64,000 nt of DNA, taken from assembly GCA_964512835.1 (NCBI GenBank), contig CAZELA010000001.1:425372-489371 (forward strand), in the 5' to 3' direction. The notes beneath the pieces were generated by a model. That model worked only from the letters and a program-made list of their open reading frames with translations, did not search any database and had not been told where the DNA came from. The position numbers were made by a program, and so were the translations under genes. Position 1 is the first letter of the stretch. Each line of letters opens with the position of its first letter. The stretch comes from an uncultured Candidatus Saccharibacteria bacterium (GTDB taxonomy: Bacteria > Patescibacteriota > Minisyncoccia > Phycocordibacterales > UBA2100). This document shows positions 710-13,112 of this stretch, in pieces.

Positions 710-2740
710 ATGCAAAAGCCGCCCCAGCCGCCAAAAGCGCCAAAAAAGCCAGTAAATACGCCATTTCATGGCGATTCTCGGGTTGATGAATATAGCTGGC
801 TGCGGAACGCGGAAAGTGCCTCGGTCAAGAACTACATTAAGGCAGAGAACGACTACGCGGACGCCGTAATGGCACCGACACGGAAGCTTCAGAAGGAGCT
901 CTACACAGAGATTCGTGCACGCATGAAGGAGAACGATATGTCGGTTCCCGTCAAAGAGGGTCCGTACGAATATTACTCTCGCTCAAAGAAGGGAAAGCAG
1001 TACATGATTCACTGCCGAAAACGTATCACCGGCGGCAAGGAACAGGTCGTGCTCGACGAGAACAAGTTGGCTGCGGGCGAAAAATACTTCAGTCTCGGTT
1101 TGTTTGAAACATCACCGGACCATCGTCTTCTTGCGTACGCTACGAACACCTCCGGCGATGAAAAGTACACGCTCCGCATCAAAGATCTGCGAACAGGTAA
1201 GCTGCTCGCCGAAAAAATCGAGTCGATCGCCGATTTCGAGTGGGCTGAAAACGGGGAGCATTTTTTCTACACCGTGGAGGAGCATCCACATCCGCCGCGC
1301 AAGATCTACCTGCACCGACTTGGCGAGGACACCAAAGAGGATGTTCTTGTATACGAGGAAAAAGATCCGCAGTGGTACGTCGGTCTGGACAAAAGCCGCT
1401 CCCGCAAATACATCTTTTTCATTGCCGCGAATTTTGATTCGACGGAGGTCCGCGTTATGCCGGCACATCATCCCTTCTCGCCGGTCCACGTGCTTGCTCC
1501 GCGAAAAAAAGACGTTAAGTACTATGTCGATCACCACGACGGCTATTTCTACATCATGACCAACGAGCGGGCGGTCAATTTCAAAATCATGCGGACGAAT
1601 ACTGAAACGCCGACCAAACAGTATTGGCGCGAATGGATGCCGCACGATATTGATCGCCCCATTAGCGGCATGCTCATGTTTGAGAACTTTTTTGCGATAA
1701 CCGTACGCGAAAAAGGGTCCGAGGAAATCTACATTCACGAGCCCGGTAATCCGAAAGGGAAGAAGGTGCAACTCCCCGAGAATGAACATTCCATCGGAAT
1801 AAACGACGACCTCGAGTATTTCTCGAAATTCATCCGCATCTCGTACCAGTCGCTCGTGACTCCGCGAGTAGTTTTTGACTATTTCGTGGAAGAAGATAAG
1901 TTCAAGGTGCGTAAAAAACAAGACGTGCCCGGTTGGAACAAAAAAGGCTACGTATCCGAGCGCGTTTGGGTAAAGTCGGGTGACGTAAAAGTTCCGGTCA
2001 TCCTGGTGCGGTCGAAAAAGGTAAAGCTCAACGGCACGGCGCCCATGCTGCTCGAAGCCTACGGTTCGTACGGCATCTCATCGGACCCGTATTTCTCGAT
2101 ATCGAAGCTTTCTCTTTTGAAACGCGGGTGGATCATCGCGGTTGCACATCCTCGCGGCGGAGGCGAAATGGGGTGGCATTGGCACAAGCAGGCCAAGCTG
2201 CTGACGAAGCACCGAACTTACGAAGATATGATTGCGGTCGCGGAGTATCTTGCCAAAAACAAGTACACAACCGGTAACCGTATCGCACTGATGGGTGGGA
2301 GTGCAGGCGGCATGCTTGTGGGGGCAGTGCTCAACATGCGGCCGGATCTGTTCGGGGCGGGCGTCGCGCTCGTACCTGCTGCTGACATCATTACCTCGAT
2401 GTTCGATGAGTCGCTCGGGGGCACGCGGCTGCACTACGACGAAGTGGGTGATCCGAGGATCAAAAAGTTCTACGAGTATTTCAAAAAATATTCGCCGTAT
2501 GAAGGTGTACGGGCACAGCAGTACCCGGCAATGCTAGTGCGAGTGAATATGAACGATATTCGAACGCCCTATTGGGAAGGGGCCAAATGGGTTGCACGAC
2601 TACGCGCCAAAAAAACAGACTCCAATCAGATATTGCTCAAAACTGAAATGGTTGCAGGACACTTCGGCAAATCGGGACGGTACGAGTGGATCAAGGACCG
2701 CGCATTCGACTTTGCGTTCTTGCTGCAATTGTTCAAATAG
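710..2740 (+). CDS. ptrB: oligopeptidase B / prolyl oligopeptidase family S9A serine peptidase
   Basis: 676 aa with an N-terminal beta-propeller-like region and a C-terminal catalytic domain carrying the GGSAGG nucleophile elbow (MGGSAGGMLVGAV), the S9A family hallmark. Confidence 0.75.
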   Translation: MQKPPQPPKAPKKPVNTPFHGDSRVDEYSWLRNAESASVKNYIKAENDYADAVMAPTRKLQKELYTEIRARMKENDMSVPVKEGPYEYYSRSKKGKQYMIHCRKRITGGKEQVVLDENKLAAGEKYFSLGLFETSPDHRLLAYATNTSGDEKYTLRIKDLRTGKLLAEKIESIADFEWAENGEHFFYTVEEHPHPPRKIYLHRLGEDTKEDVLVYEEKDPQWYVGLDKSRSRKYIFFIAANFDSTEVRVMPAHHPFSPVHVLAPRKKDVKYYVDHHDGYFYIMTNERAVNFKIMRTNTETPTKQYWREWMPHDIDRPISGMLMFENFFAITVREKGSEEIYIHEPGNPKGKKVQLPENEHSIGINDDLEYFSKFIRISYQSLVTPRVVFDYFVEEDKFKVRKKQDVPGWNKKGYVSERVWVKSGDVKVPVILVRSKKVKLNGTAPMLLEAYGSYGISSDPYFSISKLSLLKRGWIIAVAHPRGGGEMGWHWHKQAKLLTKHRTYEDMIAVAEYLAKNKYTTGNRIALMGGSAGGMLVGAVLNMRPDLFGAGVALVPAADIITSMFDESLGGTRLHYDEVGDPRIKKFYEYFKKYSPYEGVRAQQYPAMLVRVNMNDIRTPYWEGAKWVARLRAKKTDSNQILLKTEMVAGHFGKSGRYEWIKDRAFDFAFLLQLFK

Positions 2741-2843: not shown

Positions 2844-3620
2844 ATGGCTTTTAGGCCAATACACGGCACATTCGATGAGTGCCTCAGTCACTACAGAAAA
2901 TACGGCGGGGACCACTCGTTTAAGCGGATGCTGGATTTCGGCGTCTCCAAGAACGAGGGCACGTTGCGCCGGTGGTTTGTCGACTCCGCACCGAACGGTG
3001 TGTATCGCATCCGCCTGCAGCAGTATCTTTCCGACGTCGGCTACAAGATCAAGGAGCTGCAAACCGCTGCCGAAGAGATTCGTCTTGCGTGCCAGCTGCT
3101 CTCGTACGACCTCGCTTCTGAAGAGGAGATTGCATCCGGATTCGGTATTCCCGAACATCGGTGGTCACGACTTCCCAATATGTTGGTCCGCGGCACGATG
3201 GCGGACGACCGACTCGCGAAAGGCCGGTTGTACCTCTCGCCGCTCAGGACAATCCTTGCAGAAGTGCATGAGGGGCGCATTCTCGCGCTCAGCAACACCG
3301 TTCCGTCGACCGCTCCGAAACCGGGTTCGGCCAAGGCCGAACCTGCCGCTCTGCCTGTTCCCTCGGTACCGACGTCGTCGGCTCCGCCGGAACACGTGAT
3401 CAAGGATCACGACGCAGTCATTCAGGCGACGGCAGCAATGCTGACGTCGGTGTACCCGCTTCTACAGCTGGTCAATTCAGATCAGTACTCGGCTGAGGAA
3501 CGTGCCGATCTTCGAAAGAAGCTCGGATTCTTCGGGGCGATGCAAATCTCTACGGAACTCAATCGCCTGTGCTCTGAACGCGCACGGGATCAATTCAAAT
3601 CTGAAGGGAACTGCAAATGA
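2844..3620 (+). CDS. hypothetical protein, first gene of candidate island; possible HTH-like segment
   Basis: 258 aa ORF with RBS AAGGGAGA upstream. Its TGA overlaps the ATG of the next gene (ATGA at 3617-3620). No recognisable catalytic motif. The C-terminal half is Pro/Ala/Ser-rich. Confidence 0.5.
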   Translation: MAFRPIHGTFDECLSHYRKYGGDHSFKRMLDFGVSKNEGTLRRWFVDSAPNGVYRIRLQQYLSDVGYKIKELQTAAEEIRLACQLLSYDLASEEEIASGFGIPEHRWSRLPNMLVRGTMADDRLAKGRLYLSPLRTILAEVHEGRILALSNTVPSTAPKPGSAKAEPAALPVPSVPTSSAPPEHVIKDHDAVIQATAAMLTSVYPLLQLVNSDQYSAEERADLRKKLGFFGAMQISTELNRLCSERARDQFKSEGNCK

Positions 3621-5380
3621 ACGCACAGACTCCGCAGGCCGGCGGCTCGGACGAAGCTCGCATTGAATACATGCCGCTCGGCCTTTTCATGGGCTCTGCG
3701 CTATGTGTCGTTGCGGGGCGGTATGAAACGCTGAAGGAAGCAATTCTGGAGGCGGTGCAGAACGCACTCGACAAGAAGGCTCGCAACATCAATATCGCAC
3801 TCAATCACAAAACCAACTATGTCGCGATCCGCGACAACGGCAACGGTGTCGGCCCGGCGGAATTCAAGGAGAAGCTGGCGACCGTGTGTCGCAGTCTCAA
3901 GTTGAACGACAAGGGTAGCCTCGGCCGGTTCGGCATGGGGCTGATTGCGCCGCTCGGCAAGTGTCGCGAGTTTACCTTCACGTCATGCGAGAAGGGGGCC
4001 AGCGAGTATTTGCAGTGGACGTTTAACACCGCTGAGATCGAGAAAAGCCCTGATGAGCCCTCGATTCCGTGCGTTGTGCAGCCGGACCTCGTGTTCAGGC
4101 CGCAGGGCGCCGGCTCGATCAAGGGCAAGGTGAAGAAGGCTACATGGTGGCGAAGCCAGCTTGTGATCCACGATTACAAGAAGGACAAGCTGCTTGCGCG
4201 CATCGACTCCGCGCAATCCTTGGTCGACGAGATCAAGCGACGGTATCGGCTGAAGATGCTGGAGAACGACACTGTTCTCACGGTGAAGTTCACCAACAGC
4301 GACGGCAGTGAAGATCGTGTCGACGATGCGGTTGCTGAACGATACTCCGGTAAGGAGTTGCCTCCGTATGTAGCCCGCTCGCGCGGACTTTCACCAAGTC
4401 GCACGGATTTCGAGCTGTATCTCGCGATCCGTACGAAAGAGGGACAAGGCGGACAGGTTGAAGTCGGTGTGATCGGAGATCCCTTCGCATTCGAATTCGA
4501 AACATTCGTCGATTCGGTTCCCGGTGTGCTGCCAAAGGAGGTCGTCGACGCACTCACGTCGGGGATTTTCGAGGGCGTCATTCGCGGCGACAAGGTCGAA
4601 CTTGAATCGTCACGCAAGAGCTTCAAGCGCAGTGATGCGGTTGAGGAGTTCTGTAAGGCGATCGTTGAATGGTACGAGAAGGTCGGCAAGGCGCATGTGA
4701 CCGAGATCTCAGAAGCTCGGCGCGAGGAGCGATGGCAGAACATCATGCGCAAGGCGCTCGGTAATCTGCAGGAACTCCTCAAGGATGATCCGTCATTCGC
4801 TCATCTTCGCAGCGCATTCGATAATCTCAGTCGCGGTCGCGGCGCGAGGCGATCATCAGGAACCGTTCAAGGCGGTGAAGGTGAGAACGTGCAGGGTGTC
4901 GGCGGGGCGCCGGAATCGGCGACACCGTTTCCGGATATTCCGCCTGGTTCAGGCGGCGGATCGGGAGGCGGTGATTCGGATCGTGATCCGAAAGCCGACG
5001 ACGCATCGTCCATCGGTGCCTCCGGGCCCGACGGTAAACCGAGGCGCGCCGTGAAGCACGGTGCATTCGGCCTGCAGCTCTCTACGACGCCGACCGAGGC
5101 GATGTTGCGTTCGAATGTGCTGTTCATGCTCGATGTTCCGTCGGCAACACTGCACTTCAATACGCGTCATCCGACGTGGGAAGCGTGCGATACGACGCCG
5201 ATGAAACTGCAGCAGATGCAGGAAACGGCGATCATTTTCGCTCTGACTTCCAACGCGATGCCCGAAAGCCAGCAGGCTGCTGCGATGCTCGCGTTTGAGA
5301 CTGCGATCACTCCGCTCGTTGCGGGTGTGTATCACAACTCTGACGCGTTCGTGCTTTCAAAGCGACGCCGCGAAAGCTGA
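3617..5380 (+). CDS. GHKL (Bergerat-fold, HATPase_c_3/MORC-like) ATPase domain protein with Gly-rich low-complexity linker
   Basis: The N-terminus holds the GHKL N-box (EAVQNALDKKA), G1 box (IRDNGNGVG) and G2 box (GRFGMGL). GAAGGGA RBS. It is translationally coupled to the upstream ORF. Confidence 0.6.
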   Translation: MNAQTPQAGGSDEARIEYMPLGLFMGSALCVVAGRYETLKEAILEAVQNALDKKARNINIALNHKTNYVAIRDNGNGVGPAEFKEKLATVCRSLKLNDKGSLGRFGMGLIAPLGKCREFTFTSCEKGASEYLQWTFNTAEIEKSPDEPSIPCVVQPDLVFRPQGAGSIKGKVKKATWWRSQLVIHDYKKDKLLARIDSAQSLVDEIKRRYRLKMLENDTVLTVKFTNSDGSEDRVDDAVAERYSGKELPPYVARSRGLSPSRTDFELYLAIRTKEGQGGQVEVGVIGDPFAFEFETFVDSVPGVLPKEVVDALTSGIFEGVIRGDKVELESSRKSFKRSDAVEEFCKAIVEWYEKVGKAHVTEISEARREERWQNIMRKALGNLQELLKDDPSFAHLRSAFDNLSRGRGARRSSGTVQGGEGENVQGVGGAPESATPFPDIPPGSGGGSGGGDSDRDPKADDASSIGASGPDGKPRRAVKHGAFGLQLSTTPTEAMLRSNVLFMLDVPSATLHFNTRHPTWEACDTTPMKLQQMQETAIIFALTSNAMPESQQAAAMLAFETAITPLVAGVYHNSDAFVLSKRRRES

Positions 5381-5398
5381 TAGTTCTCCCAATTACGA

Positions 5399-5428
5399 GG
5401 GCCCCGGAAGGATTTCCGGGGCCTTTTC
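5399..5428 (+). terminator. rho-independent terminator after GHKL ATPase gene
   Basis: GGCCCCGGAA-GGAT-TTCCGGGGCC hairpin followed by TTTTCT. Confidence 0.7.
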
Positions 5429-5434
5429 TGTATG

Positions 5435-5460
5435 TTGACACAGTCATACATTTGTATAAT
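5435..5460 (+). promoter_or_regulatory. sigma70-like promoter candidate for ParB-like gene
   Basis: TTGACA (5435-5440) and TATAAT (5455-5460), but the spacer is only 14 nt. A TG sits immediately upstream of the -10. Confidence 0.4.
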
Positions 5461-5536
5461 AGTCGGAAATGGAGGCAGTCATTCCGACTGTTCGTTGATT
5501 ACCTTCATACCGAAACGCCAACCAAGGAGAAAAGTA

Positions 5537-6475
5537 ATGGCTGATCAGGCCGAAAAATTCACCATTCGCCTCGGCGACATCGTACGTGGTCCGCGCGTCC
5601 GCACTCAGCTCAGTGAACCTCGCATCGAGATGTTCATGCAGCTTTACGCATCAGGTGCCGACGTCGAGCGGATCGAGCTGTACCGCGGCACCAACGAGTT
5701 GTTCGCCGGCGATCACCGGACGACTGCGATGGAGCGTCTCGGCTGGCACAATCGCCAGATCGAGTACAAGCCCGTCGCAAAGCCGCGTGATCCGATCACG
5801 ATGCTCGTGGACAAGTACGCGGATAACGTCGGCGGCTCGCAGCCCCCGACGTTCGCCGACGCCGTCTTCGTCGCGAAGAAGCTGATGGAGGGCGGTGCGT
5901 CACCGGCCAAGATCTCGCGCGGCTTCACGAAGCGCATGGGCGAAACCTATCCGCCGTCATTCGTTCGCAAGCTCATGTCGCGCGCGCGGACCGAATTCGT
6001 CTCGGAGCAGACGCAGTCCGCACTCGCGGCCATGGCGGCGAAGGGTCTCACGATCGATCAGGCCGAGAAGGAGTTCAAGCTCGAGGCCGGGTCCCTGAAG
6101 AAGGTCATCACGAAGCGTTCCAAGGACAAGCCGGACATTGACGCCGTAAAGGCAGCCATGTCGGGCCGCTCCAAGGGCTTCAGCCGTAAGAACGGCAGCG
6201 CGCTGTCCGACCTGCTTGATCGGTTCGCTGAAAAGGGTGTCTCGGCGAAGGACGTCACCGACGTGTTCAAGCACGTCGAGTATCTTCTGGACCGGCAGTT
6301 GAGCGCCTTGTCAAAGCTGCGCAAGCGTTTTGCGTCGCTCGGCGGCCCCAAGATCGGCAAGTCGAAGAAGCGCCGCAGCGCGAGTGTTCGCACGGCGAAG
6401 CGCGGCAAGAGCTCGCGGCGCGCGAAGTCGCGCAAGCCCAATCTCAACGGATCGGGTGCGCACGCTTCCGCGTGA
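5537..6475 (+). CDS. ParB/sulfiredoxin (ParB N-terminal/DGQHR-like) domain protein with Lys/Arg-rich C-terminal tail
   Basis: RBS AAGGAG 9 nt upstream. The N-terminus matches ParB/Srx fold signatures (IRLGDIVRGPR...; GDHRTTAM, cf. GxxR/DGQHR/GGCHR motif). The C-terminal approx 60 aa is extremely K/R/S-rich (KKRRSASVRTAKRGKSSRRAKSRK). Confidence 0.55.
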   Translation: MADQAEKFTIRLGDIVRGPRVRTQLSEPRIEMFMQLYASGADVERIELYRGTNELFAGDHRTTAMERLGWHNRQIEYKPVAKPRDPITMLVDKYADNVGGSQPPTFADAVFVAKKLMEGGASPAKISRGFTKRMGETYPPSFVRKLMSRARTEFVSEQTQSALAAMAAKGLTIDQAEKEFKLEAGSLKKVITKRSKDKPDIDAVKAAMSGRSKGFSRKNGSALSDLLDRFAEKGVSAKDVTDVFKHVEYLLDRQLSALSKLRKRFASLGGPKIGKSKKRRSASVRTAKRGKSSRRAKSRKPNLNGSGAHASA

Positions 6476-6499
6476 TCGGTAACGGGTAGTGTACTCACG

Positions 6500-6532
6500 A
6501 GGCCGTCGTTCGCGACGGCCTCTTTGCTTTTT
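6500..6532 (+). terminator. rho-independent terminator after ParB-like gene
   Basis: AGGCCGTCG-TTCG-CGACGGCCT hairpin followed by CTTTGCTTTTT. Confidence 0.7.
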
Positions 6533-6564: not shown

Positions 6565-8487
6565 ATGAAAGTAAACGACGTACGCACCAAATTTTTCGAA
6601 TTTTATAAAGCCCGCGGCCACGAGATCGTCCCGTCTGCTCCGATTGTTCCTTTGAATGATCCGACGACTCTGTTTACCGGATCCGGTATGCAGCCGATCC
6701 TGCCGTACCTGCTCGGCGAACCGCACCCGAAGGGGAAGCGTATAGCGGATTCACAAAAGAGCTTCCGAGCCGAAGATATTGAAGAGATCGGCGACAATCG
6801 GCACACAACGTTTTTTGAAATGCTCGGCAACTGGTCATTCGGAGACTACTTTAAAGAGGAGCAATTGTCGTGGGTGTTTGAGTTTTTGACCGCAGAAATC
6901 GGGCTTGATCCGCAGCGCATGTATGTAACGGCATTTATCGGTGACGAAAAAAATAATCTGCCGAAAGATAATGAAGCGGCTGCCATATGGACCCGGCTGT
7001 TTGCCGAAAAAGGGATCGATGCATCGGCGGTCGACATCGGTAGTGAAGCGGACGGATACGTGAAAGGTATGCAGGGCGGACGCATCTTTTTCTATGAGGC
7101 TAAGAAGAATTGGTGGTCGCGCGCCGGTGTTCCGGAAAAAATGCCGGCCGGAGAACCCGGAGGACCGGATTCCGAGATATTTTATGACTTCGGGACCATG
7201 CATGACCCGAAATTCGGCGACGAGTGTCATCCGAACTGCGACTGCGGACGATTTGTAGAAATATGCAATTCGGTCTTCATGCAGTACATCAAACAACCTG
7301 ACGGGTCTTTCGAATTGCTGCCCCAACGCAACGTAGACTTCGGCGGAGGGCTGGAGCGCATTGCCGCCGCATCGAATGACAACCCTGACGTGTTCAGTAT
7401 CGATACGCTCGCGGACATCATTACGTTCTTGGAACGGATGTCCGGCAAAACGTACGAGGACGAATCCGCGCGCCGTTCCTTCCGAATCGTGTCCGATCAT
7501 ATGCGGGCCGCCACGTTTATGCTTGCAGACGGCGTGCGACCGGCCAATTCGGACCGGGGATATGTGCTACGACGACTACTCCGACGAGCCTCGCAGCATG
7601 CACAAAAGCTCGGCATTACGTCGGAAAGCCTCGAGGATAGCGCACTCGTGCGCGCCGCGGTCGTAATCATCGAAAAATACAAGGCTGCATATCCGGAGCT
7701 TGCAAGCGATGAGGCCTACCAGATGATCCGAGGAGAGATCTGGAAGGAGGAGCTGCAGTTCGGACACACGCTCGTCCAGGGTCTCAAAGAATTCGAGCGG
7801 ATAGCAACCACTGCTATTTCTGCCGAACAGGCCTACACCCTCTTCACGACCTACGGATTCCCGTTTGAAATGACGCAGGAGCTTGCTGCCGAGAGAAAGC
7901 TGTCGGTCGACGAGACGGGGTATAAGGAGCTCATGGTAAAACACGCTGATCTTTCGCGTGCCGGATCGGAGCAGAAATTCAAGGGAGGTCTTGCCGATGC
8001 GTCGTTGGAAACGACACGCCTGCACACGGCACATCACCTGCTGCTCAAAGCGCTTCAGATCGTGCTCGGTGACCATGTAAAGCAGCGCGGGAGCAACATT
8101 ACCGCCGAACGGCTACGAATCGACTTTTCTCACGGTGAAAAAATGACACCGGAGCAAAAGGCGGAAGTGGAGCGCATCGTAAACGAACAGATAAAAATGC
8201 ATCTCCCGATGGTGCGGTCTACACTCCCGAAGGAAGAAGCCGAACAGCTCGGTGCGGAACATGAGTTCGGTGCAAAGTATCCGGACGTCGTTTCTGTGTA
8301 CTCGCTCGGACCGGTCGGAGCCGATGTCGATAATCCTCAGTTTGATAAAGCATTTTCGATTGAATTCTGCGGCGGTCCGCACGTGTCGAACACGAGCGAG
8401 ATAGAGGAAGGCGGCACATTCAAGATTCAAAAAGAAGAGGCTGTAGCGGCCGGGATTCGAAGAATCAAAGCGGTACTCACAAAATAA
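6565..8487 (+). CDS. alaS: alanine--tRNA ligase, short form (catalytic + tRNA-binding + editing domains, lacking C-Ala)
   Basis: The class II AlaRS N-terminus (FFEFYKARGHEIVPSAPIVP...TLFTGSGMQ) and the editing-domain HxxxH motif (HTAHHLLLKALQ) are present. Only 640 aa. Confidence 0.85.
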   Translation: MKVNDVRTKFFEFYKARGHEIVPSAPIVPLNDPTTLFTGSGMQPILPYLLGEPHPKGKRIADSQKSFRAEDIEEIGDNRHTTFFEMLGNWSFGDYFKEEQLSWVFEFLTAEIGLDPQRMYVTAFIGDEKNNLPKDNEAAAIWTRLFAEKGIDASAVDIGSEADGYVKGMQGGRIFFYEAKKNWWSRAGVPEKMPAGEPGGPDSEIFYDFGTMHDPKFGDECHPNCDCGRFVEICNSVFMQYIKQPDGSFELLPQRNVDFGGGLERIAAASNDNPDVFSIDTLADIITFLERMSGKTYEDESARRSFRIVSDHMRAATFMLADGVRPANSDRGYVLRRLLRRASQHAQKLGITSESLEDSALVRAAVVIIEKYKAAYPELASDEAYQMIRGEIWKEELQFGHTLVQGLKEFERIATTAISAEQAYTLFTTYGFPFEMTQELAAERKLSVDETGYKELMVKHADLSRAGSEQKFKGGLADASLETTRLHTAHHLLLKALQIVLGDHVKQRGSNITAERLRIDFSHGEKMTPEQKAEVERIVNEQIKMHLPMVRSTLPKEEAEQLGAEHEFGAKYPDVVSVYSLGPVGADVDNPQFDKAFSIEFCGGPHVSNTSEIEEGGTFKIQKEEAVAAGIRRIKAVLTK

Positions 8488-12015: not shown

Positions 12016-12050
12016 TCCGCGGCTAGCGAATTGTGTATTGAACTAAATCT

Positions 12051-12485
12051 ATGGGAAAGAAACGAATCATTCGAAAATCAGGCGGTAGCGTTGACGCGGG
12101 ACTCAAGTCGCGAGCTTTGGCGCGTGTCGCAAAAAAGAACATCGTACAGGGTACGCTTCATATTCATGCGACATACAACAACACGAAAGTGTTGCTCGCA
12201 GATAAGAACGGAAACGCGATCGCATGGTCGTCATCCGGTAGCCTGGGCTTTTCCGGTGCAAAAAAGGGTACGCCGTTTGCGGCGGCAAAGGTCGGTGAGA
12301 TCGTCGGCGACAAGGCGGTCATTATCGGCGTCAAGGAAGTCGATGTCATCATTCGTGGTGTCGGTTCCGGCCGTGAGTCCGCTCTTCGTGCATTCGCAGG
12401 AAAGGGGGTTGACGTTACCCGAATCTCGGACGATACGCCGGTTCCGCACAACGGACCGCGACCGCCGAAGCCGCGACGCGTCTAA
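12051..12485 (+). CDS. rpsK: 30S ribosomal protein S11
   Basis: GTLHIHATYNNTKVLLADKNGNAIAWSSSGSLGFSGAKKGTPFAAAKV is the S11 signature. Confidence 0.9.
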   Translation: MGKKRIIRKSGGSVDAGLKSRALARVAKKNIVQGTLHIHATYNNTKVLLADKNGNAIAWSSSGSLGFSGAKKGTPFAAAKVGEIVGDKAVIIGVKEVDVIIRGVGSGRESALRAFAGKGVDVTRISDDTPVPHNGPRPPKPRRV

Positions 12486-12500
12486 TTTTAAATACCATCT

Positions 12501-13112
12501 ATGTTGCCTGTTAAATCAAAGTACAAGATCGCGAAGCGCCTCGGAGCAGGTGTGTTCGAGCAGACGCAGACACAGAAGTTTGCGTTGTCTGAGCAGCGTT
12601 CGGCTGCAACCAAAAAGAAGCCTCGAGGACGCGGAGGTTCAGACTACGGACGACAGTTGCTTGAGAAGCAGCGTGTTCGATACACCTATGGCCTCAATGA
12701 GCGCCAGCTCTCCAACTACGCGGAAAAGGCGATGAAAGAAGCCGATCCGTCGACCGCACTGCACCGCATGCTTGAACAGCGCGCCGACAGCGTTGTATAC
12801 CGCGCAGGTCTTGCCGGTACCCGCCGTATGGCACGACAGCTCGTTTCGCACGGCCATATCATGGTTAACGGCCGCCGCACAACGACGCCGTCACACCACC
12901 TCAAAAAGGGTGATGTCATCACCGTACGAGAAGGCAGCCGCCAGAGCCCGCTTTTTGCCGGCCTTTCCGAAAAGGAGAACAATCGCTCGGTACCGCAGTG
13001 GGTTGCAGTCGATCTCGGTCTTTTGAAGGCGGAGGTCTCCGGCGAGCCTGCGTACACCACGGTTGAGACAGGCTTGGATTATGCGACCGTGTTTGAGTTC
13101 TACAGCAGATAG
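12501..13112 (+). CDS. rpsD: 30S ribosomal protein S4
   Basis: S4 N-terminus plus the S4 RNA-binding domain (LDSVVYRAGLAGTRRMARQLVSHGHIMVNGRR). Confidence 0.9.
   Translation: MLPVKSKYKIAKRLGAGVFEQTQTQKFALSEQRSAATKKKPRGRGGSDYGRQLLEKQRVRYTYGLNERQLSNYAEKAMKEADPSTALHRMLEQRADSVVYRAGLAGTRRMARQLVSHGHIMVNGRRTTTPSHHLKKGDVITVREGSRQSPLFAGLSEKENNRSVPQWVAVDLGLLKAEVSGEPAYTTVETGLDYATVFEFYSR

Follow-up and report, generated by a model that had tools for sequence, protein, structure and literature searches.

The stretch of DNA analysed here (the window) comprises 64,000 nucleotides (nt) from an uncultured Candidatus Saccharibacteria bacterium (GenBank assembly GCA_964512835.1, contig CAZELA010000001.1, positions 425,372 to 489,371 of the forward strand), and the subject of the present analysis is a cassette of three co-directional open reading frames (ORFs), all on the + strand, lying between a gene of the S9 prolyl-oligopeptidase family (ptrB-like, 710-2740) and alaS (6565-8487). 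ORF1 (2844-3620) encodes a protein of 258 amino acids (aa), and its stop overlaps the start of ORF2 in an ATGA at 3617-3620; ORF2 (3617-5380, 587 aa) encodes a GHKL+S5 ATPase, and ORF3 (5537-6475, 312 aa) a ParB/Noc-like protein. A separate promoter and terminator serve ORF3, as does a ribosome-binding site of the sequence AAGGAG at 5524-5529. The start of ORF3 was set at 5537, and not at 5432 as in the mechanical ORF list, because three homologues begin at MADQ/MAES and the AAGGAG box lies 7 nt upstream. A terminator-like hairpin stands 3' of ORF2 (5397-5426; a 13-bp stem, then a T-rich tail), a promoter-like region precedes ORF3 (5435-5484, with TTGACA at 5435-5440 and TATAAT at 5455-5460), and a second terminator-like hairpin stands 3' of ORF3 (6499-6522; a 10-bp stem with 8 GC pairs, then a T-rich tail); therefore, ORF1-ORF2 and ORF3 form separate transcription units. 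A first-pass annotation, made from the sequence alone, had described the three ORFs with their lengths, their motifs and the ATGA overlap, as well as a terminator and a separate promoter and ribosome-binding site ahead of the 312-aa gene; all of this is borne out by the ORF list and by inspection of the sequence, the promoter elements spanning 5435-5460. A 13-mer containing CAGTCAT occurs at 5437-5449 and again, 35 bp away, at 5472-5484, that is, within or just downstream of the promoter-like region of ORF3, and a third copy lies at 3411-3423; speculatively, the repeats near the promoter could be a candidate operator for ORF1 or ORF3.

In its layout the GHKL+S5 ATPase ORF2 resembles MutL, an N-terminal module being joined by a linker to a C-terminal domain, and it has a MORC-like helix besides. 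Its Bergerat-fold ATP-binding domain (3662-4051) contains the N-box (E45/N49/D52), the G1 box (D73-G75-G77) and the G2 box (G103-F105-G106-G108); the stretches EAVQNALD, DNGNG and GRFGMG are all found in the protein and are invariant family-wide, and in the alignment of 18 homologues E45/N49/D52, D73/G75/G77 and G103/G106/G108 do not vary. The motifs of the GHKL superfamily (ExxxNxxD, DxGxG, GxxGxG) are thus all in place, and the match to Pfam HATPase_c_3 (PF13589; E 2.3e-17, 63.7 bits) lies well above the gathering cut-off of 25. As in GHL-type modules, an S5-fold transducer domain (4052-4621), with the invariant stretch SGIFEG...R333..F336, comes directly after the ATP-binding domain, and is followed by a long helical, coiled-coil-like segment (4634-4825, residues 340-403; helices H340-388 and H392-403 in the AlphaFold2 (AF2) model), by a disordered Gly/Ser-rich linker (4835-5068, residues 407-484; predicted local distance difference test score, pLDDT, < 50) whose length and sequence vary across the family, and by a C-terminal domain (5069-5377, residues 485-587) with invariant N515 and H518, which is probably a dimerisation domain. 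The Bergerat-fold ATPase and the Gly-rich linker had been recognised in the first pass; the C-terminal domain, put there at roughly 170 aa, has a structured part of only ~100 aa.

The AF2 model of ORF2, built on its 18 homologues, has a pLDDT of 75.5; the structures closest to it are those of SMCHD1, MORC3/2 and MutL, and the best Foldseek matches by E-value are Hsp90, TRAP1 and HtpG. Assignment to any of these families was considered and rejected. The signature GhXhhpXXRhl, which in the MORC family is found in the S5 domain (PMC2292703), is missing in 18/18 members of the ORF2 family when sought by regular expression, and relaxing the pattern yields no match either. With the equivalog models of MutL and HtpG, ORF2 attains between 14 and 24 bits against cut-offs of 180-455 (23.1 against 180 for TIGR00585, 23.5 against 455 for HtpG), the endonuclease motif DQHA(X)2E(X)4E is not found, no mutS gene lies nearby and the C-terminal domain is unrelated in sequence to that of MutL; a MutL fragment or an Hsp90, either of which the first-pass annotation would have taken as contradicting its reading, is therefore not what the gene encodes. 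The family is a small one: a word-indexed search of 5.8 billion proteins gives just 18 clusters. In two loci (L029:6956-8677 and L030:1227-2948) the GHKL gene is broken into ORFs of 69 and 501 aa, possibly through a frameshift, pseudogene formation or an assembly error.

As single sequences, ORF1 and ORF3 find nothing usable in Pfam, NCBIfam, PHROGs, PADLOC or the PDB sequences, and for this reason family profiles and structure models were needed. ORF1 had been left as an unknown protein in the first pass; a profile of 27 family members reveals, at family-profile level, an N-terminal helix-turn-helix (HTH) of the XRE/Cro-C1 type (approximate limits 2874-3053), matching PDB 3op9 (E 6.8e-4) and, at a higher E-value of 0.018, the P22 C2 repressor, and Pfam HTH_3 is matched by 5/27 members (best E 0.0011). 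W44, G52 and G66 are nearly invariant in the family alignment. The C-terminal part carries a helical motif of no known family, SD..E.R..LR...G...F.LSN.L..LCSE.AR (3426-3593), in which R220 is invariant and R224 and L242 nearly so; in the shortened homologue of L054 (147 aa) only the HTH and this motif remain. The ATPase may be contacted through this motif.

ORF3 contains both of the stretches on which its earlier assignment to the ParB/sulfiredoxin (Srx) fold had been based, GDHRTTAM and IRLGDIVRGPR, and the assignment is now upheld by structure and by profile. The AF2 model (pLDDT 90.8) comprises a ParB/Srx N-terminal domain (5537-5791), where R22 occupies the position of the arginine of the ParB QPR motif and G58-D59-H60-R61 that of GERR; a central HTH (5792-5938) with conserved A93, N97, G99-G100, P103-P104 and D108; long C-terminal helices (residues 140-169, 201-231 and 237-267; 5954-6337; pLDDT > 90); and a disordered K/R/S-rich basic tail (6338-6472; pLDDT about 50-60), found also in the closest homologues. 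Foldseek places Noc (7nfu, E 2.8e-5) first, followed by ParB/Spo0J, pNOB8 ParB-N, PadC and sulfiredoxin, the alignments, of about 200 columns, spanning, in Noc and ParB, the N-terminal domain and the HTH domain; the family profile finds Noc at E 3.7e-6 and sulfiredoxin at 5e-4, and its alignment sets the family GRHR (GDHR in the window) onto the GERR of Noc. Both the N-terminal fold and the GxxR motif by which the ParB/Srx superfamily is defined are thus present.

The ORF3 family is extensive, an exhaustive search yielding 252 clusters at 50% identity with full-length relatives of ~260-320 aa; the scan of genome contigs with ORF3 alone returned two close relatives only. The alignment consensus reads ...F.VR...PPI.V...EL.DGRHR..A..., and among 62 aligned members G58 and R61 are invariant and V21, R22 and H60 at least 90% conserved. 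Pfam families matched within this set are HTH_psq (18/62), HTH_23 (9/62) and ParB_N (6/62 at E < 0.01, best 1.1e-5); ORF3 itself does not match ParB_N (PF02195) at E up to 1. In ParB the Glu of the ENLQR box is required for CTP hydrolysis; N97 of ORF3 falls at the Asn position of this box and the preceding Glu is replaced by Ala, so that the pocket looks able to bind nucleotide, perhaps with poor hydrolysis. An ordinary chromosomal Spo0J or ParABS-type ParB, which the first-pass annotation had named as a result that would speak against its proposal, was rejected in view of the missing ParA gene nearby, the lack of a Pfam-level match and the divergent C-terminal half; indeed, no ParA-type Pfam family occurs among the neighbours in eight ORF3-family neighbourhoods, where the neighbours are the GHKL pair, alaS, or the small proteins termed f0 and f4 (see below). 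ORF3 shares with the ParB, Noc and Spo0J clamps the ParB/Srx N-terminal domain followed by an HTH domain, with ParB the QPR-position arginine, the GxxR motif and the Asn of the ENLQR box, and with Noc the lack of a ParA partner; it differs from all of these, and from KorB-type regulators, in a C-terminal part made of long helices and a basic tail, and from ParB in the Ala of the ENLQR box and in its partners, which are f0, f4 or the HTH-GHKL pair instead of ParA.

In order to establish which genes travel together, 57 related loci were gathered and their ORFs searched with hidden Markov models of four families, namely f0 (a small protein of ~90-110 aa) and the families f1, f2 and f3 of ORF1, ORF2 and ORF3, respectively; at < 90% identity the loci contain 35 non-redundant GHKL lineages. 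According to their taxon labels the relatives are metagenome-assembled genomes of Paceibacterota and Parcubacteria, with one labelled Saccharibacteria. The HTH gene immediately adjoins the GHKL gene in 29/35 lineages, the exceptions being truncated contigs or the most distant ATPases, and it stays adjacent where f2 precedes f1, as is the case for two lineages (L017/L033/L034 and L039-L041). Since adjacency survives the reversal of gene order, there is strong evidence that the two form a functional pair. An f0 gene lies upstream of the pair in about eight lineages. The ParB-like gene adjoins the GHKL gene in five (window/L011, L001, L053, L013/L035 and L054), in which the GHKL proteins are 27-61% and the ParB-like proteins 28-72% identical; alaS is the neighbour at three of these sites and thrS/pheS at a fourth, and at the fifth, next to msrA, the two genes are divergently oriented. 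The link between a GHKL ATPase and a ParB-like protein suggested in the first pass is therefore real and is not constant, most GHKL loci being devoid of the ParB-like gene. A correlation between GHKL and ParB-like identities (Pearson 0.92) was discarded, given that a single close pair carries it (Spearman p = 0.10).

For the ParB-like family, the gene context was inspected in eight of the 252 clusters, four of these neighbourhoods having been sampled from the ParB side. The ORF1-ORF2 pair is adjacent in three of the four members with a set neighbour that were sampled beyond the closest relatives, and in 3/8 neighbourhoods (L015, L055/56 and L057) the ParB-like gene stands without an ATPase, in the arrangement f0-f3-f4 (L015:6685-8241, L055:6542-8216, L057:2827-4368), where f0 measures ~85-135 aa and f4 is a conserved protein of ~93-102 aa with no Pfam family. 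The sets f0-f1-f2, f1-f2-f3 and f0-f3-f4 constitute a mix-and-match gene network, in which ORF1 is the near-constant partner of the ATPase and the ParB-like gene a recurrent but facultative third partner. It could be argued that ORF1 and ORF2 are an orphan ATPase operon, for example of a chaperone-like Hsp90 relative, and that ORF3 is an unrelated ParB-family regulator next to it by chance: ORF3 has its own promoter and terminator, most GHKL loci are devoid of the ParB-like gene, which itself stands without the ATPase in 3/8 neighbourhoods, and Hsp90-type proteins give the best Foldseek E-values with ORF2. The adjacency, however, recurs in five lineages with widely diverged GHKL proteins, at different sites and in two orientations, f0 is a partner common to both gene sets, and the scores with the HtpG equivalog models fall far short of the cut-offs; chance neighbourhood is accordingly a very unlikely explanation.

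Clustering of the neighbours over the 35 lineages retrieves as recurrent only f0, f1, f3, aminoacyl-tRNA synthetase genes and one protein of ~400 aa. The last, of ~400-435 aa and without a Pfam family, is encoded just upstream of the HTH-GHKL pair in three loci (L008:5979-7169, L013:3027-4337, L031:4794-6098), two of which, L008 and L013, belong to a thrS-linked clade. The synthetase genes are alaS (window, L001, L005, L023 and L053), thrS-type (L008, L013 and L032), cysS (L006) and pheS/pheT (L013); this adjacency was set aside as a functional clue, for it reduces to approximately three independent sites after collapsing synteny, and in gene-dense small genomes it may be due to chance. In L005 (4924-5517) and L023 (8675-9304) the slot between the ATPase and alaS is occupied by another protein, winged-helix-like by eye and with a basic low-complexity region; the two are 31% identical to each other and give a weak GntR match (E 0.27). 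This protein may be a functional replacement of the ParB-like gene, and it might be suggested, as a weak inference, that the third position of the cassette is generally taken by a DNA-binding protein.

The first-pass annotation had presented the cassette as an island inserted between ptrB and alaS. The cassette has not been inserted recently: L001, L053, L005 and L023, whose alaS products are 64-87% identical to that of the window, have it at the same site, again in the order peptidase - cassette - alaS. The gene upstream of the cassette varies, encoding a peptidase of the S9 family in the window (710-2740) and L001, of the M13 family in L003/L005 (L005:2-1924) and of the M16 family in L053 (1974-3245); because the upstream peptidase differs between syntenic lineages, the site looks like a variable hot spot. 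A conserved PDDEXK-MGMT-(UDG) block and alaS border the cassette region. The cassette proteins diverge faster than their neighbours: between the window and L001, amino-acid identity is 87% for alaS, 90% for the S9 peptidase and 76% for the aldo-keto reductase (AKR), compared to 41% for f1, 61% for f2 and 72% for f3; between the window and L053 it is 72% for alaS against 26%, 34% and 39% for f1, f2 and f3; and between the window and L005 it is 64% for alaS against 25% for f1 and 37% for f2.

The comparison with the close relative L011 points in the opposite direction with regard to synonymous divergence (dS), which amounts to 0.94 for f1, 0.57 for f2 and 0.49 for f3. Of six flanking genes that could be measured, the S9 peptidase, alaS and two downstream ones reach 1.5-1.6; as the other two remain at 0.70-0.76, the lower values of the cassette are suggestive rather than decisive. 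The ratio of nonsynonymous to synonymous divergence (dN/dS) is 0.05-0.06 in the cassette (0.06 for ORF1) and 0.01-0.02 in the flanks. By these ratios the cassette genes are under purifying selection; their history differs from that of the flanks, the evolution of the cassette being decoupled from that of its neighbours. Elsewhere in the window, a 234-aa ORF at 12031-12735 is 92% identical to L011 in DNA and just 80% in protein, with dN/dS ~1; perhaps it was called in a wrong frame, or it does not encode a protein at all.

In base composition, the GC content of the cassette is 58.8% against a mean of 54.1% for equal-sized windows (standard deviation 1.26; 0/302 reach the value of the cassette), its tetranucleotide usage is the most deviant of the whole window (0/151 stretches as extreme), and the GC content at third codon positions of ORF3 is 0.78 against 0.61 +/- 0.05 for the genes of the window; the impression of the first pass that these genes are richer in GC than their flanks is thereby confirmed, the cassette being an outlier of the window in both measures. 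The excess is not confined to this genome, as the cassette exceeds its flanks in GC in 17/22 lineages, with host GC ranging from 32% to 61%. Conserved synteny combined with host-typical composition had been named in the first pass as a finding that would contradict its proposal; the site is kept in several relatives, the composition is atypical.

These observations bear on the proposal that the cassette is the cargo or the remnant of a mobile element (an integrative element, a plasmid or a phage), the HTH protein being a repressor, the ParB-like protein a partition or regulatory factor and the GHKL protein a DNA-handling or anti-defence protein. Phages and plasmids typically encode repressors of the XRE type as well as ParB-like proteins; the GC content of the cassette differs from that of its flanks, and its dS relative to L011 lies below that of most measured flanking genes, which is compatible with recent exchange. 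A large serine recombinase gene follows the pair at a distance of ~1.2 kb in L002, where the region (L002:10030-16470) looks like a mobile or defence island: downstream of a DUF4145 gene, it comprises f0-f1-f2, a SHOCT-domain protein, the recombinase and a KAP-family NTPase of 935 aa; L016 and L017 are IMG/VR contigs, and most neighbours in L017 are without Pfam families. On the other hand, no integrase or transposase is encoded by the ORFs near the cassette, and the search for marks of integration found neither att-like flanking direct or inverted repeats nor tRNA genes in the window; the cassette measures just 3.6 kb and occupies the same site in several diverged genomes, and tblastn with ORF3 gave zero matches in 50,697 phage and 72,556 plasmid records. 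An origin as mobile-element cargo hence appears quite improbable. Two further neighbourhoods are recorded here: in L008 the pair lies near SocA and a transposase, and in L015 the f0-f3-f4 set, which lacks the ATPase, has a type I restriction-modification system and a Shedu gene as neighbours.

Among prokaryotes, GHKL+S5 ATPases other than MutL, gyrase and HtpG occur mostly in restriction-modification or defence contexts (PMC2292703; PMC12137116), and the cassette has to be compared with these systems in particular. Differently from MORC/SMCHD1 and from the prokaryotic MORC and paraMORC proteins (Iyer, Abhiman and Aravind 2008, PMC2292703), the ORF2 family lacks the GhXhhpXXRhl signature; the superfamily II helicase, DNA methylase and restriction-fold or HNH nuclease of the MORC/paraMORC restriction-modification-type systems do not recur in the 35 cassette neighbourhoods, and ORF2 has neither the fused nuclease nor the TIR domain of paraMORC3 and paraMORC4. 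Its fixed partner is instead an XRE-type HTH protein, and the family is confined to Patescibacteria-type contigs. With Mza (MzaB), Tiamat (TmtA) and GHKL-Shedu (VcSduA/paraMORC3, PMC12137116) ORF2 shares the HATPase_c_3-type ATP-binding domain: PADLOC v2.0.0 aligns it to MzaB at 27 bits and to TmtA at 26 bits, both over residues 41-137 only, that is, ~100 residues of profiles 500-1500 positions long, and the NCBIfam MzaB model scores 36 against a cut-off of 850. No other Mza component is found at the cassette, nor is the DUF4263 nuclease of Shedu; in PADLOC, ORF1 and ORF3 are unmatched and no model matches more than 1/62 members of the ORF3 family. The PADLOC matches being limited to the N-terminus of the ATPase, the first-pass view that the cassette falls outside the named defence systems stands. 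A literature search retrieved no description of a system combining GHKL and ParB-like proteins or of a GHKL defence system of Patescibacteria, nor any account of the ORF2 family in that group; in the Menshen paper (PMC12065111), a count of terms finds ParB to be frequent and GHKL to occur zero times. What is already known, therefore, is that GHKL+S5 ATPases take part in prokaryotic DNA-directed accessory systems; the ORF2 family, its HTH partner, the ParB/Noc-like partner and the links through f0 and f4 are not known from earlier work.

The cassette probably acts on DNA. The reading favoured here is that it is an accessory, exchangeable module restricted to Patescibacteria (the Candidate Phyla Radiation, CPR) that would clamp DNA for the defence against, or the silencing of, foreign DNA, and a probability of roughly 45% is assigned to it. 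An accessory role in conflict is preferred because of the rarity of the cassette, its variable location, its foreign composition, its fast divergence, the exchange of partners and the precedent of GHKL+S5 ATPases in restriction-type systems. Several observations weigh against it. The 35 neighbourhoods have no recurrent effector, be it a nuclease, a methylase, a helicase or another protein, and most neighbours of the cassette are housekeeping genes, aminoacyl-tRNA synthetases among them; the ORF3 family, with its 252 clusters, is far larger than the GHKL family and usually stands without the ATPase. The GC excess could partly stem from amino-acid composition, two flanking genes, AKR and g324, have a dS relative to L011 of 0.70-0.76, and the site beside alaS is kept over a deep divergence, which would fit a vertically inherited cellular function too.

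The last point leads to the main competing explanation, namely that the genes form a lineage-specific, housekeeping-like module of Patescibacteria for chromosome or nucleoid organisation, which shapes, segregates or silences the chromosome of the host. Such a role would agree with the conserved position between a peptidase gene and alaS (alaS 64-87% identical), with purifying selection on all three genes (dN/dS about 0.05), with the chromatin and nucleoid proteins found as nearest structures (SMCHD1, MORC, Noc and Spo0J), with the missing effector and with the size of the ParB-like family, which has its own small partners f0 and f4. It agrees less well with the rarity of the GHKL pair and the differences in its site between lineages, with a composition that is foreign in most hosts, with a divergence far faster than that of the neighbours, and with the presence of the pair next to a serine recombinase and on contigs classed as viral in IMG/VR; overall, a nucleoid function is held to be somewhat unlikely.

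If the accessory module indeed acts on foreign DNA, its mode of action may be sketched as follows. The conserved core is the translationally coupled pair ORF1-ORF2; the C-terminal domain of ORF2 would keep the protein dimeric, and the N-terminal gate would close upon ATP binding, so that DNA is clamped or compacted as in MutL and MORC, with ORF1 providing DNA recognition, targeting or regulation. ORF3, which is separately transcribed, would probably bind or spread on DNA as a nucleotide-gated switch. Because no recognisable nuclease is present, the expected outcome would be occlusion, compaction or silencing of the target DNA (a phage, a plasmid or another foreign element), and not its cleavage; alternatively, the complex might recruit a factor encoded elsewhere, that is, an unlinked effector. 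In its most complete form the proposal would be that of a nuclease-free, two-switch system for DNA surveillance or silencing specific to Patescibacteria, in which an ATP-gated MORC/MutL-like clamp, directed to its target by an XRE-type HTH adaptor, and a nucleotide-gated ParB/Noc-like protein, the two being linked via f0, jointly trap, compact or silence foreign DNA, representing a prokaryotic counterpart of MORC/SMCHD1-type silencing assembled from the interchangeable parts f0-f1-f2, f1-f2-f3 and f0-f3-f4; taken as a whole, this elaborate version is doubtful.

Apart from MutL, gyrase and HtpG, little is understood about most GHKL+S5 ATPases of prokaryotes, and those that are known are parts of restriction-like systems, working alongside nucleases or helicases. 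In the cassette described here the GHKL+S5 ATPase is accompanied by a DNA-binding adaptor and, in a recurrent manner, by a putative switch protein of ParB/Noc-like type, and a recognisable nuclease is missing. Should the cassette restrict or silence foreign DNA, it would represent a mechanistically distinct form of immunity, acting by clamping or compaction, and it would then offer a bacterial model for the action of MORC/SMCHD1-type ATPases on DNA. Its chromosomal site is fixed, its proteins diverge rapidly, its composition is foreign and its partners can be swapped, and this combination may provide a search signature for other undescribed systems. Patescibacteria have small genomes and few known defences, and the cassette enlarges the sparse inventory of their accessory systems.

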